Part shown: positions 3,151 through 40,095 of the stretch, one piece after another
Numbering within the stretch: position 1 is the stretch's first letter
Layout: each line of letters opens with the position of its first letter
Virus record (IMG/VR): IMGVR_UViG_2740892121_000006
Span: 1-40,095 of that record
Length of the DNA stretch: 40,095 bases
Strand: one strand, 5' to 3'
Source: a virus
Lineage: Duplodnaviria; Heunggongvirae; Uroviricota; Caudoviricetes
The notes under the pieces: generated by a model
Seen by the model: only the letters and a program-made list of their open reading frames with translations
Databases searched by the model: none
What the model was told of the DNA's origin: nothing
Position numbers and translations under genes: made by a program

Positions 3151-5613
3151 TCAATTCCCTGTTAATTGCAAAACTTGCTCTTCCAGCTTTTTAACCCTGC
3201 GTCTCATCATCGCAGATTCCAGAATCAGAGCCTCTTCATAACGGATACCGTAACATTCACCAGCCTCGACGGCTTCGCGTACCAGAACCTTTGTCTGTAT
3301 AAGTGGGTAAACTCCTGCAGAATGCTCTTCTTCCGTCACATCCCTGTATTCTGCCGGGGTCTCATTCCACTTGTCATAACAGATAAATGCCAGTCGTGAC
3401 ACATCTATGCCTTCATTCTGAAATACACTGATAACATGCTGCGCAACTGCACCAAAGTGCCATCTTGCTCCGTCTTTACCTTTCACTTCGATCCTGTCAA
3501 GGTACTGGTATGAAACCCATTCCACTCTTTCCCATGCGTCCAGTATTTTCTCATCAATAACCTCTGGAGCAGTCTTGAAACGCGCATCGGACAGCACCGT
3601 AAACGCTGACTGGGTAAATCCCCCCGACCATGCACGACCAGCCAACCCAAGAGAATAAGTATTCGTTTTCGATGGTGTCATGGCTGAATCAGAAAACTGT
3701 ATATATTCTGAATTTCCAGTAGATATTCGAATATTTCCATTTATTAGCGACATAGTGCCTTTAGTATTATCACTATTGAATAATTTCAATTGCGAACTTA
3801 TACCGCCTCCCACAGCCAGAGATACATCGCCTTCAGCAAGCATTCTGAATTTATCTGCAGAAACAAGCGTCTGGTTAGCAAGGTTAAAATATTTAACCCA
3901 CCATTCAAAACGCCCTGACATAGTCCCAACGTACTGACCAAGCGCAGGGACGTGAACAACATTGCTATTTGTAGTGCCGTCTATACTGGAAATACCAGTC
4001 ACCGCTGATGCAGAACTCAGAATATTATTTCTGTCACCCGGATGTTTAATTTCAACAAAGTTCCTGATACACCCTTCCTCGAAGGTAACCACGCCGGAAG
4101 AACTATACATGGGGAATATTGACGCATAATTACTGCGTGCAGCATCTAAGAAACGAATGGTTGTAGATGTCTGCAGATCTCCTGATTCATTTTTCCCATC
4201 ACACCCAGTCATTAGAATATTACTGGCAATATTATTATTTCCCTGAACGGTGACGCCGTGCGCCTGCTTTGCGTCCGATTCAGAGTAATCAACCAGCACA
4301 TTCGAAATCAGGTTACCAGTCCCCTTGCCAACAACTACTGCGGCGTATTTTGGGTTGTTAGCCATTACACTGCTAATGATATTATTCGTTGGTGCAGTTT
4401 CCGTCTCAGTTCCATTGTAAACAACGTGCTGACACTCTTCACCAATAACATTGCTGACAATGTTATATTTTGCTGCTGTTTTAAGTTCCACTGCACCAAA
4501 CTGAGGATAATTTCTGGCTATCACACCATCAATTAGCGTATTTTGCGATGAATCAAAAAGCACACAACCTGCTTTTTTATTATTTGCGAACCCTAAATAC
4601 TCTCCTCTTATATCTCTAACAATGTAACCTGACGGAATACCATTATTCGGATAAGCGATCAAGCTAAATCCTGTTCCTCGCGTATTTGTAAATCTGATAT
4701 TTTTAACCGATACATCATGGCCACCTGAAAATGACACCTGGTGTCCCTGCACACTATCATCTGATTTATTTCCCATAATTGTTAGCGTACTAAGCATGCC
4801 ACCATCGGGCATGTTAAAAACCAGATGATTACCATCTCTGTCATACTGTTTTATCGTTCCCCCACCTGTTCCGTACAAGCCACAACGTGAAAGAGAAACT
4901 AAAGATGTATTGAATACCCCTTCCGGAACAAAAACACTGCTAAACGAATGTAATGATTTTGTAAAAGCATCCTTGTTATCATTTAAGATTCCATTTTGAG
5001 CTCCAAAATCCTTAATGCTGACACCATCACGCATCTTATCCTGGAACGTTCTGTATACCGCTCCAGAACCATACTGAATAAACCAACCAAAACCACCAAT
5101 AACTCCGGCGATTGCAGCATCGACATAATTACGCATTGAGCGATTATTTACAGCGTCCTGCTCAAGTGATGGATCGGCAAGGTTAGATATTCTGTTTTGC
5201 TTTGCATCGTAATATTTTGCAAGCAAAGATGGTTTCATCAATGCACGTCTGAACCACCCAAAACATCGCTGGATCAGCATCGTCAGGTAGTCAAATGCAT
5301 CCTCATGAACTTCGGGGAAAAATTTTCCCTGATTGCGAAGATCAGTCTCCTGCACCACATCAAGCACACGCTCTATCGTGATTCGCCAGCCAGCAGCAAG
5401 CGGCGACGGAAGAACCACTGCACCGCCACTATAAGTTCCCGCCCCTGTTACCGTATAACCAGCATCCAGCACTAGTTTTGTAACGTTACCGTTAAGGTCA
5501 GACACCTGAACAACCAGGTCGGATTTTTTGAAAATACGGAAGGTATACGGAAATGATGTCGTAACGCCGTTACCTGTGTATTCGTTGTGGTCAACTTCGG
5601 TTGAGACCGTCAT
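3151..5613 (-). CDS. Tailspike / tail fibre with T7-fibre-like N-terminal anchor and C-terminal S74 intramolecular chaperone
   Basis: N-terminus YTGNGVTTSFPYTFRIF resembles phage tail-fibre N-domain; long Gly/Asn/Ser-rich central region (beta-helix-like); C-terminus SDARFK...GARWHFGAVAQHV matches endosialidase-chaperone (peptidase S74) pattern; SD GGAG. Confidence 0.8.
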   Translation of the reverse strand: MTVSTEVDHNEYTGNGVTTSFPYTFRIFKKSDLVVQVSDLNGNVTKLVLDAGYTVTGAGTYSGGAVVLPSPLAAGWRITIERVLDVVQETDLRNQGKFFPEVHEDAFDYLTMLIQRCFGWFRRALMKPSLLAKYYDAKQNRISNLADPSLEQDAVNNRSMRNYVDAAIAGVIGGFGWFIQYGSGAVYRTFQDKMRDGVSIKDFGAQNGILNDNKDAFTKSLHSFSSVFVPEGVFNTSLVSLSRCGLYGTGGGTIKQYDRDGNHLVFNMPDGGMLSTLTIMGNKSDDSVQGHQVSFSGGHDVSVKNIRFTNTRGTGFSLIAYPNNGIPSGYIVRDIRGEYLGFANNKKAGCVLFDSSQNTLIDGVIARNYPQFGAVELKTAAKYNIVSNVIGEECQHVVYNGTETETAPTNNIISSVMANNPKYAAVVVGKGTGNLISNVLVDYSESDAKQAHGVTVQGNNNIASNILMTGCDGKNESGDLQTSTTIRFLDAARSNYASIFPMYSSSGVVTFEEGCIRNFVEIKHPGDRNNILSSASAVTGISSIDGTTNSNVVHVPALGQYVGTMSGRFEWWVKYFNLANQTLVSADKFRMLAEGDVSLAVGGGISSQLKLFNSDNTKGTMSLINGNIRISTGNSEYIQFSDSAMTPSKTNTYSLGLAGRAWSGGFTQSAFTVLSDARFKTAPEVIDEKILDAWERVEWVSYQYLDRIEVKGKDGARWHFGAVAQHVISVFQNEGIDVSRLAFICYDKWNETPAEYRDVTEEEHSAGVYPLIQTKVLVREAVEAGECYGIRYEEALILESAMMRRRVKKLEEQVLQLTGN

Positions 5614-5716: not shown

Positions 5717-5733
5717 ATTACCTTTCAGGTAAT
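5717..5733. promoter_or_regulatory. 17-bp palindrome ATTACC-N5-GGTAAT (candidate repressor operator)
   Basis: ATTACCTTTCAGGTAAT, perfect 6-bp inverted arms; about 75 bp upstream of small ant-like gene. Confidence 0.5.
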
Positions 5734-5769: not shown

Positions 5770-5789
5770 TACTGTATAAATATACAGTT
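5770..5789. promoter_or_regulatory. LexA box (SOS operator)
   Basis: TACTGTATAAATATACAGTT = CTGT-N8-ACAG with AT-rich core, 18/20 match to TACTGTATATATATACAGTA; ends 6 nt before the first ATG. Confidence 0.7.
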
Positions 5790-5809
5790 ATTGCATGGAG
5801 AAGATTAAG

Positions 5810-6067
5810 ATGCAGCAGTATCACTATCCACTGGAAGAGGGATTTACCGAAAGGATTCACACGCCGGGAGGCGTCAGGTCACTGGTGGAGGGATCGCACT
5901 TGATGAAATTACTCCGGGATCTCGATAAGGATGGATTTAATGTCGATGGCCCACTTGCCGAACTGACTGCACTGATTAACTACGTCACCAGCTCACAGAT
6001 GTCTATGCAGGATCTGCAAACACATCTCGACTATTGTGCCGAACAATTACGAAAGCAAACCACATAA
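5810..6067 (+). CDS. Small antirepressor-like protein (stand-alone copy of Ant C-terminal domain), LexA-controlled
   Basis: About 40 percent identity by eye to the C-terminal 65 aa of the Ant protein at 7534-8226; start at second ATG (SD GGAG 9 nt upstream); track start 5795 also possible. Confidence 0.55.
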   Translation: MQQYHYPLEEGFTERIHTPGGVRSLVEGSHLMKLLRDLDKDGFNVDGPLAELTALINYVTSSQMSMQDLQTHLDYCAEQLRKQTT

Positions 6068-7125: not shown

Positions 7126-7142
7126 ACTACCTTTAGGGTAAA
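7126..7142. promoter_or_regulatory. Degenerate copy of the 17-bp palindrome
   Basis: ACTACCTTTAGGGTAAA, one mismatch per arm; overlaps the translation-initiation region of gene A. Confidence 0.35.
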
Positions 7143-7267: not shown

Positions 7268-7359
7268 TTTACATTGCACTCCTCTTGTGCCATAGTAATC
7301 AGGCACTGGCAAAATCCAGTGCCGGGATTGGTCTCCCGGATTACTACAGAGGCACATAT

Positions 7360-7379
7360 GCCGCATAAGCGGTTTTTTT
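7360..7379 (+). terminator. Intrinsic terminator-like hairpin plus U-run inside the ant leader
   Basis: GCCGC-ATAA-GCGG followed by TTTTTTT; two further hairpins just upstream (7302-7323, 7322-7339). Confidence 0.4.
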
Positions 7380-7533
7380 ATGTGTAAAGCGCACCTATTC
7401 TATGGTGGGCTGTGTGGGGGCACCGAAAGGTGCGCCGGGTTCCTTTGTAGCCGGTAAGACCAACTCTGCACAGTTCACCACCATCTGATTGGTCTCAGCG
7501 GTGGTGATTAACCTAACTACAAAGGTGATCGCC

Positions 7534-8673: not shown

Positions 8674-9148
8674 TAACGAAGAAACTGAGTTCGAGGAAGT
8701 TGAGGAAGGGCTAAGTAACGAGATCATTCAACACCCAGATGCCTTCACAAGAGTTCTTGATCGCCCTGAAATTCAGGAGATAGTTGTCGCTCACCATGCG
8801 TTTCAGGGTCCGCTTCCTCCCCCCTATCTGCTTCGCGGGTATCAGGATATTTTACCTGATGCCCCCGAACGCATCTTCCAGCTGACGGAGAAGGAGTTTG
8901 CTCACCGCCAGAAAATGGAGGAAAAGGCACTTGACGGGGCTATTAATAGAGATAAACGTGGGCAGTGGTTTGGCCTGAGTGCAACTATTTTTACAGTAGC
9001 TTGTGCAACATTATTAGGTTTAACAGGTCATGAAGTTCTAGCTGGCACAGTGATCGGTACAGTTGTTGCAGTGGCTGGTATTTTCGTTCTTAGACAAAAA
9101 CCAAGCATCAAGAAGAAATCTGAAGACAACAAACCTGAAGAAAAGTAA
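8600..9148 (+). CDS. Membrane protein, acidic N-terminal domain plus two C-terminal TM helices (DUF2335-like by recollection)
   Basis: C-terminal hydrophobic helices FGLSATIFTVACATLLGL and TVIGTVVAVAGIFVL; start ambiguous (ATG 8600 or 8645); overlaps upstream gene. Confidence 0.45.
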   Translation: MQEENQKLKECPSTNMQKSIGQPSDNEETEFEEVEEGLSNEIIQHPDAFTRVLDRPEIQEIVVAHHAFQGPLPPPYLLRGYQDILPDAPERIFQLTEKEFAHRQKMEEKALDGAINRDKRGQWFGLSATIFTVACATLLGLTGHEVLAGTVIGTVVAVAGIFVLRQKPSIKKKSEDNKPEEK

Positions 9149-9169
9149 GCCCGCGCTGCGGGCTTTTTT
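9149..9169 (+). terminator. Rho-independent terminator
   Basis: GCCCGC-GCT-GCGGGC then TTTTTT directly after the TAA of 8600-9148. Confidence 0.65.
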
Positions 9170-9403: not shown

Positions 9404-9425
9404 AAACAAGGCCGCGAAAGCGGCC
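9404..9425 (-). terminator. Hairpin terminator for minus-strand gene 9440-9889
   Basis: GGCCGC-GAAA-GCGGCC (9410-9425); plus-strand A-run TAAAAACAA gives the T-run for the minus-strand transcript. Confidence 0.45.
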
Positions 9426-9426
9426 T

Positions 9427-9438
9427 GTGACATGTCAC
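9427..9438. repeat. 12-bp perfect palindrome GTGACATGTCAC (copy 1)
   Basis: Identical 12-mer recurs at 29024-29035; related GGCATGTCAC at about 26759. Confidence 0.5.
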
Positions 9439-9439
9439 G

Positions 9440-9889
9440 CTACTTGCGAAATCTTTCTTTACCCTTCCAGCCAGTAGATGTTAGTTCAGGATGAATGGTT
9501 CCCAATATAAAGCCAACCATAGCGGAGCGAGGATCTTCTATTTTATCCGTTAATTCTTCGGCATAACTCACAGGCAACCAAGCAACAAGATCACCAATCC
9601 TCAGCTTTGGTCCTTTGCTGTAAGATGAATCGGCAATAACAAAAAATCCACCATCAGCTGAGCACACCTTCAGCATTGCCCTTTGTCTTCCAGAATCTAG
9701 CAAAACTGGCTGTTCCCCACTTGGACCAGGTATGATGATGGCTGGCATTGGTTTATTGGCTGAAAGGCTTGTGTCAAGATACTTACACGCATACTCAAAA
9801 GCTGAAAAGTTATCCTTAAAGATAAGAGGTTGAATTTTATTGCTAACCTCCTTACCACCGATTAATCTGTTGATCATCTTCTTGAACAT
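9440..9889 (-). CDS. Hypothetical protein
   Basis: 149 aa from ATG 9889 with SD AGGTGA; track start is GTG 9898; no family recognised. Confidence 0.45.
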   Translation of the reverse strand: MFKKMINRLIGGKEVSNKIQPLIFKDNFSAFEYACKYLDTSLSANKPMPAIIIPGPSGEQPVLLDSGRQRAMLKVCSADGGFFVIADSSYSKGPKLRIGDLVAWLPVSYAEELTDKIEDPRSAMVGFILGTIHPELTSTGWKGKERFRK

Positions 9890-9901
9890 AAAGGTCACCT
9901 A

Positions 9902-17518: not shown

Positions 17519-19989
17519 CAGAATCCCCCAACAGTAAGGCGAGGAATAACGGCAAGAACAGACAGCGGCAACGGGTCAAGCTGACGGATTTTTACACGTC
17601 CGTTTTTGCCCCAGTTACTGTCCAGTTTCACTTCTACTTTTCCGGTAGCATCATCAACAGGATCATCGTAGAACTCGAATTCACGCTGTGGATATTCGTA
17701 CCATTTACCGCCGGGCGTAGTCGCCCAGATGCCGCGGCTGGCATTCACAACCAGAGTAACGGACGGGATCACCTGTTTTTTGTCCAGCAGCGTTTCCTGT
17801 CCGTTAATGTTGATATCCAGTGTTTCGAATTCAGCAGTTATTGGCAGGCCGATGTGCACTACAGCCCCCGGAGATTCCAGTGTGACGGCACCTCCGGAAA
17901 CAACTTTCTGTGGCTCAACATTCGCATCAGAAAGAATGTTTACGGTCTGGCCTTCAAGATGAGACAGGCCTCCAAATGTCCGGCGCGCCATCTGCCAGTT
18001 CGTGGTGGCCACATTCCTGAGGGATGGCGGGACGTTCCTGTTAGCACGAACCACTACAGCGGTATTGCTGGTTACAGAAATAATGTCGCAACGTAATTCT
18101 TTTGACACTTCATCGCCAGTATCAGGATCAGTTCCGGTATAAGGGAACTGTAGTTGCGCGCCGACATCACTACTGGTGAAGTACGCACCACCAGAAACAC
18201 TGATTGTATATTCCGCATGGTAATCCCATTCACCAGAACCACCAGTGATGGTCATCGTTCTGTCAGACGTATTTCTTCCATCATAGCTAAGGCCAGAATC
18301 AACAAAGAAAGCATCTTCATCGCTGGTAAATAAACGGCTGGACAGTCGCTCGATGTATCTCACTGTTTGCCCGTTAACGGTTCGGTTAACGACGAAATAC
18401 ACCGCATCTTCATTGCCTTCGCTGATACTGCATGTGCTTTCATATTTTCCGGTACTGGATTGTGGTGCCCATGCAAAAACCTGCTGATCACGCAAATAGG
18501 TCATCACCAGTAATTTACCGTCATCACGAATGCAGAAGGCACTGGAGTAAGGGACAATCGAGAAGCACCAGTCAACAATGCTGTGCTTCTGAAAAAGATG
18601 ATTGGCAAGGATGGTCAGGTCGTTCCCCTGATAGCCGTCAACATCGAATGAGTAGGCCAGATCACGGACAACACTGCCTTTCTCCTGGACGAACAGAGCA
18701 ATATTCGCCACGGCAATTGGTGGGACATTGCTCGAGCCATTTGATCCCTGAGAGCTGAATGCAAATGATGATGGGGTTAACACTTTGTTCTGGTCGCCGG
18801 TGATGACGTACTCACCTCCGGAAGTCAGTGCCACCAGCGAACCGACATCAATCAGGTGGCGGATCTCATTAACCTGACGCCCGGCATAGGTGTAGATAAT
18901 TCTGTCGTCATCCTGCGTAGGATTGCTTTTGCCAAAATCCTTATAATCCCCGGTACGGCTGGCCCAGATAGTCTGAGGGAACGCAGTCGATGCGGCGAAG
19001 TAAAGACGTTGTTGATAATAAACAACAGTGCCAGGATAACCATTAACACTGTTCCAGGCATATTTAGCCCATTTATAGCTGGCATTATCCTCGCCAACTA
19101 CCTGCGAAGGGATATAGGAAATCACCTCGGCAGTTGCAGTAGTTCCATTTGCAGCAGTGATACGGGCAATGCCAAAACCACTGTGCAGATATTCCCACTC
19201 AATGCCAGTATCATCATCACCGGATCCGCCCCAGCCATCCCATGATGTGCCTTCTGTATGCGAAGGGCGCAAAGTACCTGTTTTGCCTGCTGTAACGGCG
19301 CGATAGTAGTTACTGTCTGCACGGCGAATATCGCCAATCGACGTACTCTTACTGGTTTCCCATACCGGCACAGAATCCACTGCAGGCTGTTCCAGATAGA
19401 ACAATTTGCCTACCTGCTCCGCGCCAAAAATAGAGGCGCTTGCCGTTAACGTAATTGTCCCAGTGCTGGCGCTGGCATAAACCGTCACTGACTCGTCAAT
19501 ATTGATATCTTCAAATGGCCCGTTCTTCGTTATCACATCAACCAGTTGCCAGTTGTCATGAGCATATCGGCGCAACTCTTTCGGCGGGTATGCCGGGTGA
19601 ACCAGCGTAAGCACGTCGGCGCTTTGCGTGAATTTAATTCGGAACAGATCGGCTTCAGTATATGGCGTGGCAATTTCATAAATAACATTGCTACTGTTCA
19701 GCACCAACGCACCATCTTTGATAACGCGCATGTACTGGTGTCCGAACTCCAGAGCATAGGTCTGAACCGTCGAGAACTGGAACGGGATCAGGCGGCATTT
19801 CCGATTTGGGTATTTGGCGGCACCGACAAAACGCGTACCAGGTCGATTCTCAACGCCGCCATACTGCCGCACGATAAAGTTATCGCACTTGCGCAATGCC
19901 ACCTGGTACTTCGCCATGTCAATACGCCCGTACAACGACGGTCCAATCTCACCACCGGCAAAGCTGGGCTGGATCCAACTGATAGCCAT
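17518..19989 (-). CDS. Tail tubular protein B-like (nozzle), 823 aa
   Basis: Size and position match podovirus tail tube B; follows a 201-aa tube A-like gene. Confidence 0.45.
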   Translation of the reverse strand: MAISWIQPSFAGGEIGPSLYGRIDMAKYQVALRKCDNFIVRQYGGVENRPGTRFVGAAKYPNRKCRLIPFQFSTVQTYALEFGHQYMRVIKDGALVLNSSNVIYEIATPYTEADLFRIKFTQSADVLTLVHPAYPPKELRRYAHDNWQLVDVITKNGPFEDINIDESVTVYASASTGTITLTASASIFGAEQVGKLFYLEQPAVDSVPVWETSKSTSIGDIRRADSNYYRAVTAGKTGTLRPSHTEGTSWDGWGGSGDDDTGIEWEYLHSGFGIARITAANGTTATAEVISYIPSQVVGEDNASYKWAKYAWNSVNGYPGTVVYYQQRLYFAASTAFPQTIWASRTGDYKDFGKSNPTQDDDRIIYTYAGRQVNEIRHLIDVGSLVALTSGGEYVITGDQNKVLTPSSFAFSSQGSNGSSNVPPIAVANIALFVQEKGSVVRDLAYSFDVDGYQGNDLTILANHLFQKHSIVDWCFSIVPYSSAFCIRDDGKLLVMTYLRDQQVFAWAPQSSTGKYESTCSISEGNEDAVYFVVNRTVNGQTVRYIERLSSRLFTSDEDAFFVDSGLSYDGRNTSDRTMTITGGSGEWDYHAEYTISVSGGAYFTSSDVGAQLQFPYTGTDPDTGDEVSKELRCDIISVTSNTAVVVRANRNVPPSLRNVATTNWQMARRTFGGLSHLEGQTVNILSDANVEPQKVVSGGAVTLESPGAVVHIGLPITAEFETLDININGQETLLDKKQVIPSVTLVVNASRGIWATTPGGKWYEYPQREFEFYDDPVDDATGKVEVKLDSNWGKNGRVKIRQLDPLPLSVLAVIPRLTVGGF

Positions 19990-23501: not shown

Positions 23502-23798
23502 TCACTCCTGTTCACTGGCCTCTTTGGCCATCTTCAAATACTGTTCAGGGCAATGCGCCATAACGCGCTGAAACAGTTCCAGCGCCAGATTGCGTTGCCC
23601 CTCATTAAATGCCATTGCCATAGCGTCCATCGGTGAGATAGCGGAAAACACACGGCCTTTCTCCAGCACCGACCAGACAACGCGACGCCCCTGTTCACTG
23701 CTCATGACAAAGCGAATGTCATCAATTTCACGCTGCGCCATGTCACGTTGCTTACGGGCGTTTTCTTCTTTCAGTTGATCGTCTTCGTAATCAGTCAT
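23502..23798 (-). CDS. Small acidic protein (98 aa), head-assembly context
   Basis: ATGA overlap with portal stop; coiled-coil-like charged sequence. Confidence 0.45.
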   Translation of the reverse strand: MTDYEDDQLKEENARKQRDMAQREIDDIRFVMSSEQGRRVVWSVLEKGRVFSAISPMDAMAMAFNEGQRNLALELFQRVMAHCPEQYLKMAKEASEQE

Positions 23799-25784: not shown

Positions 25785-25801
25785 ATTACCTTTCAGGTAA
25801 C
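25785..25801. promoter_or_regulatory. 17-bp palindrome (candidate operator) with TTGACA hexamer upstream
   Basis: ATTACCTTTCAGGTAAC, identical in 16/17 positions including spacer to the site at 5717; TTGACA at 25764-25769; half-site ATTACC at 25723. Confidence 0.45.
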
Positions 25802-26122: not shown

Positions 26123-26199
26123 GTGGCATTAGCTCAGTTGGACAGAGCAACCGCCTTCTAAGCGGTTGGTCGCAGGTTCGAATCCTGCATGCCACGCCA
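26123..26199 (+). tRNA. tRNA-Arg (anticodon UCU, reads AGA)
   Basis: Cloverleaf read by eye: acceptor GTGGCAT/ATGCCAC, D-arm AGCTCAGTTGGACAGAGC, anticodon loop CUUCUAA, T-arm GCAGGTTCGAATCCTGC, discriminator G, encoded CCA. Confidence 0.85.
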
Positions 26200-26397: not shown

Positions 26398-26754
26398 ATG
26401 AACGACCAGCAAATCGAAAAAGAAATCGTTGAGAAAGGCAAAACCGCTCCGCGAGTTACGCCTCAATATATCGAAAGCATCATTCTTGAAGAGCATTTCT
26501 TTACTGCTTATGACGGCATTCGTGCTGCCAATATGGGCGTTGGCGATTCATGGACAGCGCATAAATCTACAGACCTCCTGACTTTCTGCGTATTGGTACT
26601 GAAGAATGGCTTCACCGTCACCGGAGAGAGTGCCTGTGCAAGTCCGGAAAATTTTGATGCAGAAATTGGTCGGAAGATTGCCCGGCAGAATGCTGTAAAC
26701 AAAATCTGGATGCTCGAAGGTTACTTGCTGAAGCAGAAGTTAAGCGAGCAATAA
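26398..26754 (+). CDS. Conserved small phage protein of unknown function (moron)
   Basis: 118 aa, strong SD AAGGTGAG; opposite strand to flanking terminase/portal genes. Confidence 0.5.
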   Translation: MNDQQIEKEIVEKGKTAPRVTPQYIESIILEEHFFTAYDGIRAANMGVGDSWTAHKSTDLLTFCVLVLKNGFTVTGESACASPENFDAEIGRKIARQNAVNKIWMLEGYLLKQKLSEQ

Positions 26755-26844
26755 CACCGTGGCATGTCACAAACAGCAAGCCTATGAACTGGCTTTGTTT
26801 TATCCTCACCAGAAGATATCAACGACATTATCCCCACCAGCGAA

Positions 26845-28320
26845 TTAAGCATAAGGGTCATAATCCGTTATGGCCCTTCCCTGCTGGCTTTGCTGTCCTG
26901 GTATATTTATGCGTTTCGAGACCGGGAAAGCAAACGTCAGCAGTAGCGCATCGCCTTTACCAGGAGAACGCCCAAGACGCTCTTTGATATCTTCCTTCGG
27001 TTCGATAACGATTTTACCGTCCACACGAACTTTGTACTCTGCCGCAGACAGGTCGTCCGCTGTTTCCTGGTCATCCAGCATGCCGCCCAGCCTCAGCCAT
27101 GTCTTGCATGAGTTGAACATCTCCCCACGCTTGTTGAGCATCTGCGGGTCAGTAGACGCACCACCGAACGGAACAAGTTGCCATGTGCGCCCCCAACCAT
27201 CACCGATTGACTTCAGACCGGTACCGTAACCGAAGTCGATGAACACCGCGTCAGCCTGATACTGGTCTTCAAAGTCAGCGATACGCTTCGCCATAATCAG
27301 ATCGTCGGTAGTCTTGTTGCCAGTCCACAGCACCTTACTGTGTAGCCCCTGCCGCAGGTATATCACCGCGTCATCAACGCCTGAATATGCCGGGTCAACA
27401 CCGATTATCACCGGAGCATGCGCCACCTGCGCAGCGGTTACCACCCGTTTCATTGCCTCATCAGTAAGACCGGTAGGGATAAACTGCAATTCAGATGCAT
27501 CAGGGAATATGCCGCGCACACGGATTTTAACGAAGTCGCTGTCTTCCCCGTAGTCATCGACCCATTTCTGCAACTGCTGTTTGTTAGTGCCTTCCACCGT
27601 CCGGCTGTCAATCTGCGCAGTTTTCCAGCGGTGTTTATATTTGCGGAAACATTCGCGGAAACGCCCGGTGTTACGTGTAGGGTTTCCGAACGCCACCCAG
27701 ATAATCTCAGTGTCTTCGTCCGTAAGCGCACCCTCAGCAACTTCCCACACCAGATCCGCAATGTTCGACGCTTCATCGAATACCACGATGATGCGTTTGC
27801 GCTCGTTGTGTAGTCCGGCGAATGCCTCAGTGTTGTGCTCAGACCAGGGGATTGCGTCAGCTCGCCACCGCTTGTCGTGCCCAGGATCATTGCTGTACAT
27901 CGCGGTAGCGGTACAGGTAAACCAGTCTTTCGTGATAGCAAGGTTCGACCACTTGATAATTTCCGGCCAGGTCTTCGTTCGTAGCTGGTTGTCGGTGTTG
28001 GCGGTCACCACGACCTTACAATCCTCGCAAGTGGACATGCCCCAGTTGATCAGCATTGAGATGAATGCGGATTTACCAATACCGTGACCAGAAGCACGTG
28101 CCAGCATAAGCGGCTGATATCGCGTCTCTGGATTCTGCAGGTGATCACGTATCTCTCGGAACGCATCGGCCTGCCACTGACGTGGACCGGTGGCATGTGC
28201 CAGTTCAGTACCCTCTTCCCCCCACGGGAACGCATAGAGGGCATAGCCAAGCGGATCGTGAGTGAACCCTGCAATATCCTCGATTAACTGCTCTTCAGGA
28301 GATAACGCTGTATCTGTCAC
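26845..28320 (-). CDS. Terminase large subunit
   Basis: ATPase motifs (Walker A-like GHGIGKS, Walker B-like VVFDEASN) and C-terminal nuclease-type acidic motifs (IIGVDPAYSG); overlaps terS stop. Confidence 0.85.
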   Translation of the reverse strand: MTDTALSPEEQLIEDIAGFTHDPLGYALYAFPWGEEGTELAHATGPRQWQADAFREIRDHLQNPETRYQPLMLARASGHGIGKSAFISMLINWGMSTCEDCKVVVTANTDNQLRTKTWPEIIKWSNLAITKDWFTCTATAMYSNDPGHDKRWRADAIPWSEHNTEAFAGLHNERKRIIVVFDEASNIADLVWEVAEGALTDEDTEIIWVAFGNPTRNTGRFRECFRKYKHRWKTAQIDSRTVEGTNKQQLQKWVDDYGEDSDFVKIRVRGIFPDASELQFIPTGLTDEAMKRVVTAAQVAHAPVIIGVDPAYSGVDDAVIYLRQGLHSKVLWTGNKTTDDLIMAKRIADFEDQYQADAVFIDFGYGTGLKSIGDGWGRTWQLVPFGGASTDPQMLNKRGEMFNSCKTWLRLGGMLDDQETADDLSAAEYKVRVDGKIVIEPKEDIKERLGRSPGKGDALLLTFAFPVSKRINIPGQQSQQGRAITDYDPYA

Positions 28321-28910
28321 TGATTACCATCCTGACGTTCTTTGAGTCGCTTCCTGGCTGCTGCTATGCGATCAGCAATTGTCACATTCACATTAACATC
28401 CAGGCGTTCTTTGAACGCATTGACGTCGACGTGCTTACCAATCAGTTCGAGGTTCTTCACCTTGTCAGGCCATTTAATTTTTTTGAGAATTGTCTCTATC
28501 GAATCCTCGTTCATGTTCATGATGGTCGATGACAGATCAAAGCCGCTAAGCGTAGTGCGCCAGATTTTCGGCCACTCTCGGATTGGCTTAAGGCTCCCAT
28601 CGTCGTTGAGGATATCAATCACGTCCATCTGGTCGATCTCCACCAGGCGCATGAGAACGTAATCAGCACTGACGCGCATTCGTTTGTTGCGCTCCTCCAT
28701 CAACTCGGCAATCCGTTTTTGAATGCGTTCATCGCGCATCATGACACTGGCTTTAACTGCCGCTGTATTTGGGGAGAATCCTGCGTTAATCGCTGCCTGA
28801 GTCTGGTTTTCAGGCGTTTTGATGTATGACTGACAATAAGCCTCCTGCATTGCTGTTAGTGGCTTAAATTGCGTTGATTTGCGTTTATAGGTTTTAGGTT
28901 CAGCAGGCAT
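28317..28910 (-). CDS. Terminase small subunit
   Basis: LTAMQEAYCQSYIKTPENQTQAAINAGFSPNTAAVKAS matches the terminase small subunit HTH pattern; ATG 28910 with SD GGTGG; track TTG 28991 extension contains a terminator hairpin. Confidence 0.75.
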   Translation of the reverse strand: MPAEPKTYKRKSTQFKPLTAMQEAYCQSYIKTPENQTQAAINAGFSPNTAAVKASVMMRDERIQKRIAELMEERNKRMRVSADYVLMRLVEIDQMDVIDILNDDGSLKPIREWPKIWRTTLSGFDLSSTIMNMNEDSIETILKKIKWPDKVKNLELIGKHVDVNAFKERLDVNVNVTIADRIAAARKRLKERQDGNQ

Positions 28911-28955
28911 CATAACCACCGTGGTAATAGTTACCGTTGTGGTAATAGTACCATG

Positions 28956-28982
28956 CAAAATAAAGCCGCCATAGTTGGCGGC
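28956..28982 (-). terminator. Rho-independent terminator just upstream of terS
   Basis: Minus strand: GCCGCC-AACTAT-GGCGGC followed by TTTATTTTG. Confidence 0.6.
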
Positions 28983-29023
28983 AGTATTCAAAACCCATCA
29001 AATTCATCATGCATAATCTACTC

Positions 29024-29035
29024 GTGACATGTCAC
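29024..29035. repeat. 12-bp perfect palindrome GTGACATGTCAC (copy 2)
   Basis: Overlaps stop codon of gene 29032-29379, about 110 bp upstream of terS start. Confidence 0.5.
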
Positions 29036-29379
29036 ACTATTAATTTCGTTTCATGCCAGCCTTTAGTCACCCAGCATTGCGAGTCACCATTACACGGGCA
29101 TGAATTAACGGGAACTCTCTCGCCGCACTTACCGCAAAGTTTTCTGCTGATCGATTTTATACGCCCGCGCACACGTGCATCATCCTGGCGGATCAGCAGC
29201 GCGATGTACTCGGCCATTTCATAGGGATCGCGACCAGGGCGCCGGGCGGCGCAGTTCCGCGCCAGCATTTCCTGCTCCTGCTTATCCAGCACCAGTTCAA
29301 TTTTGCGCTCACCGGCGGCGGACTGCCGAGCGCGCTGCGCGGCTTTGCGTTCTGCGGGGGATTTAGCCACGAATCGCAC
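29032..29379 (-). CDS. Basic protein with C-terminal Cys-rich zinc-ribbon-like motif; candidate regulator
   Basis: CGKCGERVPVNSCPCNGDSQC motif; Arg/Ala-rich helical N-terminus; last gene before terminator and terS; start GTG 29379 or 29370. Confidence 0.4.
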   Translation of the reverse strand: MRFVAKSPAERKAAQRARQSAAGERKIELVLDKQEQEMLARNCAARRPGRDPYEMAEYIALLIRQDDARVRGRIKSISRKLCGKCGERVPVNSCPCNGDSQCWVTKGWHETKLIV

Positions 29380-29485
29380 TCCACGCCAGATTGATTAATG
29401 ACTCCCAGGTAATATAAACCCGGATACCAGCAGCCAGGCCGAAACCAATCACCATGGCATAAAGCAGAGCGTTGCACTTGTTCAT
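29363..29485 (-). CDS. Unlisted small hydrophobic peptide (40 aa)
   Basis: MNKCNALLYAMVIGFGLAAGIRVYITWESLINLAWSAIRG; ATG overlaps upstream TGA (ATGA) and its end overlaps the next gene start; below the 60-aa cutoff of the ORF track. Confidence 0.3.
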   Translation of the reverse strand: MNKCNALLYAMVIGFGLAAGIRVYITWESLINLAWSAIRG

Positions 29486-30300
29486 CACTTCACCTCATGC
29501 GGCGATTCTGGTAGAAGCATCCAATTGATTACATCGCATTCAGGTATGCTGATATCATCACCAAGCCACCCTTGACCTTCAGACCAGCATTGCACGTAAT
29601 ACCCGTATTCTGTGTTCACTACGCACCACTGCGCGTCGTTCGGCATTCGCTCACTACAGCTTATCCAACCATCCGGAGTTCCCGGAGAATTGCCATTTAC
29701 CAAGTCAGCTCGAACATATAGCGTGTCATCATGGTGCTGATTGTGGCTGCACCACGTTAATTCGCTTAACTCGCCATCTTCTGGCCATACTCCAGCTGTT
29801 TGCAGCCAGATATGGGCTGGCGCATCCTGGCAAGGTGTATTAACTGGCAACTTGTAAGTTTGGCTTACAGGTTCGGCACCATGAAGCATGGCGCCGCTCC
29901 GCTCTATGCCATCCAGCGCGATTCGCAGTGCCTGAATTGTGGTAGAGCTATCGTTTGGGGCTATTCCATATCGCTCGAATACAGCTAAATGGTTGCGCAT
30001 AATCTCAGGCGTAAGCTCTTTGTAAGCATAAGCAAGAGGCTCTGATGCATTATCCAGCACAACCGACGCAGGCGCGGCAGCATAAACAGGAATAACGTCC
30101 GCTTGCTCTTTATTGCTTTCATCCGTTAAAGCCCAGAATAATTTCCCGGCCGGATGTTTGAAAATATAAGCAACTGGATCTGCTTCCAGCGATGCCAGTG
30201 CAATTTCATAAGCACGGCGCTCAATATTGTCTCGAACGTCCAAGCTGCCTATGCGCTCTTTGATTTCTTTAATCATTTCTTTGTCGGTTAAAGTTGTCAT
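29485..30300 (-). CDS. DUF551-like phage protein
   Basis: C-terminal Trp/Cys-rich module (PDGWISCSERMPNDAQWCVV...) recalled as DUF551-type; ATGA coupling with upstream gene. Confidence 0.45.
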   Translation of the reverse strand: MTTLTDKEMIKEIKERIGSLDVRDNIERRAYEIALASLEADPVAYIFKHPAGKLFWALTDESNKEQADVIPVYAAAPASVVLDNASEPLAYAYKELTPEIMRNHLAVFERYGIAPNDSSTTIQALRIALDGIERSGAMLHGAEPVSQTYKLPVNTPCQDAPAHIWLQTAGVWPEDGELSELTWCSHNQHHDDTLYVRADLVNGNSPGTPDGWISCSERMPNDAQWCVVNTEYGYYVQCWSEGQGWLGDDISIPECDVINWMLLPESPHEVK

Positions 30301-31931: not shown

Positions 31932-31948
31932 TTTACCCCTGAGGTAAT
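31932..31948. promoter_or_regulatory. 17-bp palindrome (candidate operator)
   Basis: TTTACCCCTGAGGTAAT; overlaps RBS of gene 31585-31929. Confidence 0.4.
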
Positions 31949-34243: not shown

Positions 34244-34297
34244 GGTAACAAAAATCAAGGATAGTTACCCATGAGGTGCATTTACCTGTTGGGTAAT
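34244..34297. promoter_or_regulatory. Operator cluster in the cI-cro intergenic region
   Basis: TTTACCTGTTGGGTAAT (34281-34297) plus inverted half-sites GGTAAC-N14-GTTACC (34244-34269) overlapping a minus-strand TTGATT-N17-GAATAT promoter-like element. Confidence 0.5.
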
Positions 34298-34351: not shown

Positions 34352-34936
34352 ATGAAAAGTATCCAGGACGTCCGCAGGCAAAATCTCAACGACTTGATCG
34401 ACCGTGAATTCAATGGTGTTCAGACGCGGATGGCAGAAAAACTTGGAACTCAGGCAAATCTGGTAAACCGCTGGGCTCTTGGCAAGAAGGTTATCGGCGA
34501 CCAGGTTGCGCGAAAAATTGAAGCTGCCGCCAATAAACCACGTAACTGGCTTGATATCGATCGCTCGCTTTCTCAGGAAGGTTTTCAGCCTGTCGGCCCA
34601 AGCGACATTGGTCAGCTGGCGGCTCACAACCTGGAACGCTGGATGAGCGAAAGCCGCGACCTTTCAACTCAGGGAAAACTTCACCGCGCATCCGGCGTCG
34701 CCCAGGTGACAATCAGCCGCCTGTTAAACAATGAGGTCAGTGTTTCCATTTCCACCCTGGAGAATGTTGCATCAGCATTCGGGCGTCACGGCTATGAATT
34801 ACTGATTCACCCGCACGACCCTGCGACCATCAACTATGACCGCTCGCGCTACGCATTGTTACCCGAAACCGAGAAAGCAAAGATCGAAAGTTACATTGAA
34901 TTTGTCATCAACCAGAACGAAAAAAACAAACAATAA
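34352..34936 (+). CDS. CI-like repressor with two tandem HTH (XRE-type) domains, no S24 peptidase domain
   Basis: HTH-like segments at residues about 25-65 and 105-150; no Ala-Gly/Ser-Lys protease signature; divergent from cro-like gene. Confidence 0.65.
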   Translation: MKSIQDVRRQNLNDLIDREFNGVQTRMAEKLGTQANLVNRWALGKKVIGDQVARKIEAAANKPRNWLDIDRSLSQEGFQPVGPSDIGQLAAHNLERWMSESRDLSTQGKLHRASGVAQVTISRLLNNEVSVSISTLENVASAFGRHGYELLIHPHDPATINYDRSRYALLPETEKAKIESYIEFVINQNEKNKQ

Positions 34937-38844: not shown

Positions 38845-40095
38845 TTATTCCCCCGCCATCCACTTCTCAAACTTCGACGGGGAGAACGGAATCAGATCCG
38901 TATGCTCCCCGTTAATCCAGGAATCAATCATATCGGCCCACTGCTGCAACATGTAGGCGCGCTGTCTGGCGTATTCCGCTTTGTTATATACGGCGCGCAC
39001 ACCTTTCTGCTCATGTGCCAGAGCCTTTTCAATCCAGTCTGAAGGATAACCAGCCTCATGCAACAACGTACTGGCTGTACGGCGCATATCGTGTACGGTG
39101 AAGCCCTGAATATGCTCACCATCTTCATTTATTATTTTCACCGTTCTGTCGATCAGAGAGTTCAGCGCGGCATTAGATAATGGCTTCCGGAAATTGTAAC
39201 GACCAGGAACCAGATATTCACTTCCACCAGCGCACATCTGCAACCCAACCAATATATCCTGTGCCTGTTTAGGCAGGTAAATAACGTGCGCCCGGCTTCC
39301 CTTCATGCGGTCTGAAGGAATTGTCCATGTCCATTTTTTAAAATCTATTTCATCCCACGTTGCATTGGTGAATTCGCCTTTACGAACCATAGTGATAAGC
39401 ACCAGCTTTAAAGCCATTTTCATAGTGCCCATAGCACCAATGGCATCCAGCGTGCGGAAGAACAGACCAATTTCTTCTGGTGTCAGTGTTCGCTCTCGTG
39501 GTTTAAATATGGCGATAGACGAAGGTTTAATGTCAGCCGCAGGATTAAACAAACCATGACCACGGTCATTGGCATGACGGTATACGCTGCTGATGATCTC
39601 CCTGGCCTGCACTGCTGTTGCCCGGCCGCCGCGTTCGACAATCCGGTCACACAAATCACGAACCATCGATGTGGTAATTTCAGTCATCATTTTGTTGCCA
39701 AGAACCGGAAGTATGTCACGGTCGATCACCACCTGCTTCATTGCGCGGGTACTGTCAGCCAGGATGACATGTTTCATATAACTGTCGGTATGTACCGCAA
39801 ACGTCTCGGCACCACGAATCTTTTTGATACCGTCACGTTTAGCCGCAGCCGGTGACTGGCCTGCTTTAAGCAGCTTCTTTGCAGCAATCAGTTCTTCTCG
39901 CGCTTCTGCCAGGCTGATACCGTCACGCCCATACTGCCCGATTACCAGTGTTTCGCGGCGACCGTTGATACGGTAGTCATAGCGAAACGAGACCGTGCCT
40001 GACGTAAGCACAGCTACATACAGCCCGTCACGATCGGAGACCTTGTACAGTTTGTCCTGCGGCTTGAGGTTTTTTAATTTTGTATCGGTAAGCAC
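38845..40095 (-). CDS. int: Tyrosine integrase (phage integrase family), 5' end at or beyond window edge
   Basis: N-terminal LTDTKLKNLKP...GLYVAV SAM-like domain, C-terminal catalytic region with HDMRRT and tyrosine-bearing tail; ORF reaches last base of window. Confidence 0.85.
   Translation of the reverse strand: MLTDTKLKNLKPQDKLYKVSDRDGLYVAVLTSGTVSFRYDYRINGRRETLVIGQYGRDGISLAEAREELIAAKKLLKAGQSPAAAKRDGIKKIRGAETFAVHTDSYMKHVILADSTRAMKQVVIDRDILPVLGNKMMTEITTSMVRDLCDRIVERGGRATAVQAREIISSVYRHANDRGHGLFNPAADIKPSSIAIFKPRERTLTPEEIGLFFRTLDAIGAMGTMKMALKLVLITMVRKGEFTNATWDEIDFKKWTWTIPSDRMKGSRAHVIYLPKQAQDILVGLQMCAGGSEYLVPGRYNFRKPLSNAALNSLIDRTVKIINEDGEHIQGFTVHDMRRTASTLLHEAGYPSDWIEKALAHEQKGVRAVYNKAEYARQRAYMLQQWADMIDSWINGEHTDLIPFSPSKFEKWMAGE

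Follow-up and report, generated by a model that had tools for sequence, protein, structure and literature searches.

By its sequence, the window (the whole stretch of 40,095 nucleotides that was analyzed) is an epsilon15/phiV10-like prophage whose late genes are read from the minus strand; its gene order agrees with those of phiV10 and epsilon15 (genus Uetakevirus), and a megablast search with positions 28700-29500 matched the Escherichia phages EC.W1-9, phiV10, TL-2011b and others, together with 701 of 5426 complete E. coli genomes. Read along the minus strand, the junction considered here comprises a gene for a Cys-rich protein of 112 or 115 residues (the zinc protein), a 12-bp palindrome, a 41-nt spacer, a hairpin, a repeat-like block, and the terminase genes terS and terL. 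The related IMG/VR loci with which it is compared (78-79) were chosen by the zinc protein alone. An Rfam scan at gathering thresholds found no RNA family at the junction, the matches in the window being C4, isrK and tRNA, all elsewhere; the ZX5 paper contains nothing on the junction between the zinc-finger gene and terS.

The terminator and the start of terS

The hairpin (28957..28982, minus strand) has the makings of an intrinsic terminator at the end of the early-right operon. Its stem, GCCGCCA/TGGCGGC at 28982..28965, consists of 7 bp, six of them G-C pairs, closed by the 4-nt loop ACTA; it is followed by the tail TTTATTTT, which ends at 28957 and forms a U tail in seven of eight positions, and the folding energy of the hairpin is -13.8 kcal/mol. 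We thus find a transcription unit closed by a G+C-rich hairpin with a U-rich tract directly behind it, after what appears to be the last early gene. Between 9.1 and 29.05 kb, the minus-strand hairpins of top strength (7 pairs, 6 G-C, loop of 4) are this one (28982..28957) and one at 9426..9409, with a third comparable match at 9165..9147. The exact hairpin recurs in 75 of the 78 related loci; its stem is almost invariant and, as the single change seen, from A to G, retains a wobble pair, covariation is uninformative. In other genera, unrelated, non-homologous hairpins with T tracts occupy the same position after the zinc-finger gene. The epsilon15 record annotates a rho-independent terminator at 39646-39672, between gp49 and terS, and the phiV10 record a terminator at its end. 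The strong minus-strand terminator that an earlier, sequence-only reading of the window had placed at 28956-28982 is therefore borne out.

The gene that follows, terS (28317..28910, minus strand), encodes a protein of 197 residues from the Terminase_2 family (Pfam PF03592, E 1e-29). For its start, two versions are in circulation: PGAP (WP_001090120.1) and the phiV10 record (p01) give a protein of 224 residues from a TTG codon, and epsilon15, Tyrion and EC.W1-9 have the form of 197/198 residues. The N-terminal extension of the longer form (window 28911-28991) crosses the terminator and both of the operators described below. In epsilon15, Tyrion and the Citrobacter relatives, the ATG equivalent to 28910 is the sole start, and in five relatives a stop codon interrupts the frame of the TTG-started extension within 1-13 codons. 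Comparison of the relatives thus indicates that the ATG at 28910 is the true start of terS, as the sequence-only reading had also preferred, and corrects the PGAP and phiV10 forms, which are 27 codons too long.

The palindrome and the phrog_536 protein

The palindrome GTGAC-N2-GTCAC is present in three copies, which in the window and in the Uetakeviruses lie at the 3' ends of transcription units near terminators. Copy 1 (29024..29035; GTGACATGTCAC) overlaps the TGA stop codon (29034..29032) of the zinc protein gene; this overlap, already part of the sequence-only reading, holds up and is conserved across genera. Copy 2 (26759..26770; GTGGCATGTCAC on the plus strand, with one mismatch) lies between two stop codons, that of terL, with a weak hairpin at 26795..26778, and that of a converging insert gene on the plus strand. 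Copy 3 (9427..9438), which is exact, stands 1 nt after the stop of the last gene of the structural operon (9440..9898) and directly before the terminator at 9426..9409. Epsilon15, Tyrion and phiV10 have three copies each, at the same three positions as the window: the equivalent of copy 2 is exact and found at 2262 in phiV10, 2142 in epsilon15 and 2702 in Tyrion, as well as in Citrobacter, Klebsiella and Erwinia prophages, and that of copy 3 at 19493, 19517 and 20377, respectively. A further copy with two mismatches (GCGCCATGTCAC, 23735-23746) lies inside a small gene after the portal gene, at a position where phiV10 has GTGACATGGCAC (at 5306); it could be a coding coincidence or a weak fourth site.

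As a class, 12-bp palindromes occur in the window at chance level (11 against 10.3 expected), and GTGACATGTCAC is the only one that recurs. With GTGAC and GTCAC searched at spacings of 0-8 in five genomes (window, epsilon15, Tyrion, phiV10 and N15), a spacing of 2 was the only one found. Of the 79 IMG/VR loci, 77 have the motif where the zinc-finger gene ends, as do about 21 of the 32 species genomes (Citrobacter to Xenorhabdus), at positions ranging from 3 nt inside the gene to 5 nt past its stop; altogether, the 32 species loci contain 34 copies against 0.18 expected. A 14-mer scan of IMG/VR, whose matches are partly due to chance, served as a basis for gene adjacency only. The half-sites are fixed and the central dinucleotide varies (AT, CT, GT, AC, AG), as expected for a protein-binding site; an RNA hairpin formed by the palindrome was considered and rejected, its folding energy being only -2.9 kcal/mol.

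The association with the gene extends to distant phages. The N15 gp46 gene ends in GTGACTGGTCAC and its homologue in a P2-like Yersinia phage in TTGTGACGCGTCACAA. There are two to three copies per genome in the Uetakeviruses, in N15 and in a Vibrio phage, and at least one, at the stop of the gene, in the P2-like Yersinia phage. In N15, the three copies of GTGACTGGTCAC (28550, 33237, 39269) are located at the gp46 stop, between the stop of gene 33 and a terminator, and inside repA; in the Vibrio phage K308, the stretch examined holds two, one of them 31 nt before terS. In the Proteus and Providencia relatives the motif is 1.0-1.3 kb upstream of the zinc-finger gene, not beside it, and among the four homologues examined with 33-36% identity, only a single one carries it at a distance of up to 1.5 kb. 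The 12-mer GTGACATGTCAC was not found in the text of the searchable literature.

The protein itself (29032..29370, minus strand) combines an N-terminal part resembling ribbon-helix-helix (RHH) proteins with a Cys-rich zinc module and belongs to the family of epsilon15 gp49, phiV10 gp55 and N15 gp46, phrog_536, which PHROGs describes as a 'transcriptional regulator'. Most homologues start at the GTG corresponding to 29370 (112 residues); the mechanically called open reading frame begins at 29379 (115 residues). Homologues occur in N15 (gp46), phiKO2, P2-like Yersinia phages and Vibrio phages. The best fold matches to its high-confidence structure model are RHH proteins, a fold of the form strand-helix-helix that dimerizes into a two-stranded sheet and binds repeats or palindromes; the BFVD library of viral structures yielded a match only to a fragment of the same protein. 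In an alignment of 54 homologues, C79 and C82 are invariant and C99 nearly so, the cysteines being spaced C-x2-C-x10-C-x-C-x5-C. DksA/TraR fingers have the pattern C-x2-C ... C-x2-C after a long helix; membership in this C4 zinc-finger family was rejected, since the profile of the zinc protein matches TraR and YbiI at no better than E 0.05-0.065, the cysteine spacing differs, and the family is absent among the fold matches. Searches of Pfam and NCBIfam, the Q and N families included, returned no match, and an identity as a Q or N antiterminator or as an Ogr-like protein was rejected on this ground. Of the proposal that the zinc protein is a late regulator, the part that survives is the more general one: the RHH-fold model and the PHROGs assignment suggest that it is plausibly a DNA-binding regulator. 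Its role as a late switch is called into question by the lack of a Q or N family match and by N15, which has its own annotated late activator, gp40, beside gp46, so that the family is not the late switch there; the N15 record also annotates, at another place, a promoter that is closely followed by a putative terminator.

The adjacency of palindrome and gene across phages and the RHH-like fold find their simplest reading in a protein and its cognate site, and the palindrome is thus probably the site to which the zinc protein binds as a dimer. The pairing of phrog_536 with GTGAC-N2-GTCAC, and the placement of three copies at operon ends, appear to be undescribed. If functional, the pairing would constitute a compact protein-site system spread across the Uetakeviruses, the telomere phage N15, a P2-like Yersinia phage and a Vibrio phage.

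A different origin of the site has to be weighed, in which the palindrome is bound by a host factor with sites of the type GTGA...TCAC, or is merely a conserved junction for the exchange of mosaic cargo. [quoted passage not shown] The half-sites of the phage palindrome are identical to those of matS, GTGAC[AG]N[TC]GTCAC (PMC3603311, PMC3116907), but the phage site has 12 bp rather than 13, no 13-bp site of matS type was found in the window, and prophages are reported to avoid matS (PMC3603311). Homology of the zinc protein to MatP was also considered and rejected (hhalign against E. coli MatP, probability 0.26); with the 12-bp site, the missing 13-bp site and this value, membership in the MatP/matS system does not hold and the resemblance is only a lead. 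In favor of a junction, the spacer variants A-D cease to resemble one another precisely where the motif has its 3' edge, and all three copies are flanked by variable cargo; against it, twelve bases are too short for efficient homologous exchange, and the variation of the central dinucleotide between fixed half-sites fits poorly. A host site, moreover, would not be expected to lie beside the stop codon of a single protein family in phages of unrelated types, and we consider a host factor or a mere exchange junction unlikely.

The reading of the palindrome as a site for the zinc protein can be taken one step further, into a phage-borne system akin to MatP/matS that marks the ends of transcription units and forms an undescribed layer of genome organization or late-gene control. 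This is speculative and has perhaps an outside chance of being correct; were it so, the system could act on the late operon by bridging or insulating it, or make termination at the neighboring terminators more or less efficient.

As a separate observation, the stretch from the zinc-finger gene to terS is a hot spot of cargo insertion, with the inserts in every case placed immediately behind the palindrome. Some relatives have a 70-residue open reading frame there, others a LexA box with a umuD-like gene, and yet others another small open reading frame; in Xenorhabdus, the insert by eye resembles a HigB/RelE-type toxin gene.

The candidate promoter and operators of terS

Directly after the terminator, at 28945..28953 on the minus strand, lies a candidate extended -10 promoter of the packaging/structural operon, TGgTACTAT, from which transcription is predicted to start near 28938. 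It has the features of such elements, TGn before the hexamer, A at position 2 and T at position 6; a -35 match was not found before terS, so that it is conservation that argues for the promoter. The bases TG-TA-TAT, directly upstream of the first operator, are invariant in 12 divergent aligned relatives, including two umuD-type loci (L091, L095) that have no hairpin between the upstream gene and terS, and TGnTAnTATTACC is present in all 78 loci. At the other operator sites, the consensus does not include these bases. The ATTACC part of the conserved block, however, is an operator half-site as well, which confounds the conservation of the last -10 bases. In Proteus and Providencia relatives, the same place, directly before terS, is taken by TTGAAG-17-CATAAT.

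The repeat-like block resolves into two predicted repressor operators, both on the minus strand. O1 (28930..28946; ATTACCACAACGGTAAC) overlaps the -10 element and the predicted start of transcription; O2 (28912..28928; ATTACCACGGTGGTTAT) overlaps the Shine-Dalgarno sequence GGTGG and an upstream ATG (28913..28911), and ends 2 nt before the ATG of terS. Each has one mismatch to the 17-bp pattern ATTACC-N5-GGTAAT, which with up to two mismatches is matched 17 times in the window against 1.1 expected; the consensus on the terS side is ATTACC-N5-GGTAAY. Two operators precede terS in 75 of 78 relatives, and an operator covers a ribosome-binding site also at 31948..31932. A reading of the block as 'direct repeats' (GGTACTATTACCAC / GGTAACTATTACCAC) forming a pac or TerS site was rejected, these being the two tandem palindromic operators. 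The epsilon15 record lists, as a prediction of its depositors, a 'repressor' binding site TTACCAAAACGGTAAT at 12-27, between the terminator and terS, which is homologous to O1; six further repressor sites in that record, likewise depositors' predictions, share ATTACC-N5-GGTAAT, three of them in the immunity region.

A cognate repressor is encoded in the same genome, as is characteristic of operators of the SPC32H/epsilon15 type: Rep (34352..34936, plus strand) is a homologue of the SPC32H repressor of known structure (5d50, E 4e-42), and predicted operators cluster around its gene at 34281, 34993 and 35055. From these features we infer both the binding of the repressor at O1 and O2 and the activity of the promoter before terS. 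The late-gene strand contains further modules in which a terminator is followed by an operator-bearing promoter, at 33950-33896 after a cro-like gene and at 32040-31932 after the replication genes; the latter has TTGATA, an operator as spacer, and TAAAAT, with a second operator over the ribosome-binding site of the next gene.

The boundary between the early-right and packaging operons

Taken together, we consider it probable that the boundary consists of a terminator and a repressor-gated promoter that operates without antitermination, with the palindrome as a separate element. Early-right transcription would pass through the zinc-finger gene and end at the terminator (28982-28957); the packaging operon would begin from its own promoter just downstream (28953-28945), whose start region and ribosome-binding site are covered by the two operators. 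In the lysogen, the repressor would close this promoter, and the terminator would block transcription that leaks into terS from upstream, whether its source is an inserted accessory gene (a moron) or an early promoter that is imperfectly repressed. Once the repressor is inactivated, the promoter would open, and no antitermination step would be necessary; the palindrome would be a conserved 3' companion of the zinc-finger gene. The extended -10 element and the operators downstream of the hairpin argue for this division of labor, in which the early operon is closed by the terminator and gating falls to the promoter under repressor control, and the occurrence of the same module at about 33.9 kb and 32.0 kb points to a scheme like that of P1, where one repressor holds many transcription units. 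Packaging genes in such phages would then be gated directly by the prophage repressor rather than by antitermination, to the extent that promoter activity and repressor binding are as predicted. Were all promoters released at once, the delay of structural gene expression would need another cause, and an activator could still exist.

As such, the layout of terminator, promoter and operators is ordinary, and the epsilon15 record already lists both the terminator and a repressor site. The junctions between gp49 and terS in epsilon15 and phiV10 (NC_004775, NC_007804) are homologous to that of the window, with the terminator in both records and the repressor site in that of epsilon15; in contrast to the account given here, the palindrome, the second operator and the promoter are unannotated in these records, and the spacer in the window is a deletion remnant. 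The C1 regulon of P1 comprises one repressor, many dispersed operators, and the immI antirepressor module with its C4 RNA, and the late promoters of P1 need the activator Lpa. Like it, the window spreads its operators across many transcription units, and it contains a C4 antisense RNA and isrK; unlike it, its repressor is a helix-turn-helix tetramer of SPC32H type rather than C1, and the promoter of its structural genes appears to carry operators directly.

An alternative would do without a promoter of terS altogether: the hairpin would be a leaky attenuator, the structural genes would be expressed by partial read-through from the early-right operon, and the operators would act only as roadblocks or translational blocks. 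The missing -35 element, the position of O2 over the ribosome-binding site and the upstream ATG, and the two umuD-type loci without a hairpin are all compatible with it, but it does not explain why TG-TA-TAT is invariant outside the operator consensus, it sits poorly with the strength of the hairpin and its U tail, and it is at odds with the good sigma-70 promoter of the Proteus-type relatives at the same place. We therefore regard it as rather improbable.

The sequence-only reading had likened the layout to a late promoter and a terminator that needs antitermination, with the zinc protein as a candidate late regulator. Spelled out, the late promoter would lie between the zinc-finger gene and the hairpin, and its short transcript would end at the hairpin unless the protein, in the manner of lambda Q, made RNA polymerase resistant to termination. 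A likeness to the Q/PR'/tR' arrangement of lambda does exist, in that a gene resembling a regulator ends the early operon and is followed by a terminator and then the late genes; from Escherichia through Proteus, the zinc-finger gene holds this Q-like position as the last early gene, directly before terS. The difference lies in the promoter and the protein: lambda has a promoter between the regulator gene and the terminator, and among the 78 relatives no conserved one is found there, the candidate promoter standing after the terminator instead; and the protein matches no Q antiterminator family in Pfam or NCBIfam, its fold matches being RHH proteins.

The sole sigma-70-like match upstream of the hairpin is GTGACA-18-CATGAT, with a score of 9/12; the region contains 8 such matches against 7.2 expected, no more than chance would give. 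Its '-10', CATGAT, falls within a deletion scar (28988..29014, minus strand), ATG CAT GAT GAA TTT GAT GGG TTT TGA, which consists of the first and last codons of a 70-residue open reading frame; this frame is intact between palindrome and hairpin in 29 of 78 relatives, and the window retains the remnant (the L010 variant served for comparison), the spacing classes among the loci being 125 versus 311-314 nt. Other relatives have an insert with a LexA box and a umuD-like gene, or a shorter unrelated sequence, in place of the spacer, and the '-10' is absent from the spacer variants B, C and D. A promoter confined to a single deletion variant cannot serve the whole group as its late promoter, and a sigma-70 promoter using the palindrome as its -35 element was rejected as not conserved.

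The palindrome does not help this proposal either. It lies at distances from about 70 to about 400 nt from the terS promoter and from 10 to 300 nt from the terminator, and this variability, together with the other copies at operon ends, makes it a poor fit to an activator site or a Q-binding element. Nor would processive antitermination be needed, since no strong minus-strand terminator is predicted inside the structural operon (25.8-9.4 kb). An antitermination gate at the junction is thus not supported by the sequence comparison and appears very improbable: in its favor stand the Q-like position of the gene, the promoter-like match before the hairpin, and a palindrome that adjoins terminators at three sites, and against it the '-10' in a scar, the conserved promoter-like element and operators after the hairpin, the protein outside the Q and N families, the annotated late activator that N15 has of its own, and the position of copy 3, which lies right where the late operon ends and read-through would have no evident target.

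Several further elements of the window carry predicted operators. Rfam identifies isrK (7303-7379) and the C4 antisense RNA (7398-7485) on the plus strand, with predicted operators nearby at 7126, 7251 and 8310; by sequence similarity, 7303-7485 is an antirepressor control module of the immI type, like those of P1, P7 and P22. Between terL and the portal gene, a tRNA gene (26123-26196) and an open reading frame of 118 residues (26398-26754) are inserted on the opposite, plus strand; this moron is bounded by copy 2 of the palindrome and an operator at 25785-25801, which overlaps a promoter-like TTGACA-17-TACCTT on the plus strand. Finally, a sequence resembling a LexA box (ACTGTATAAATATACAGT; 5771-5788, plus strand) stands directly before an open reading frame of 90 residues (5795-6067, plus strand), which may be the SOS-controlled antirepressor known from SPC32H; on the opposite strand, the tailspike gene is preceded by a perfect operator (5717-5733), so that the two arrangements stand back to back.
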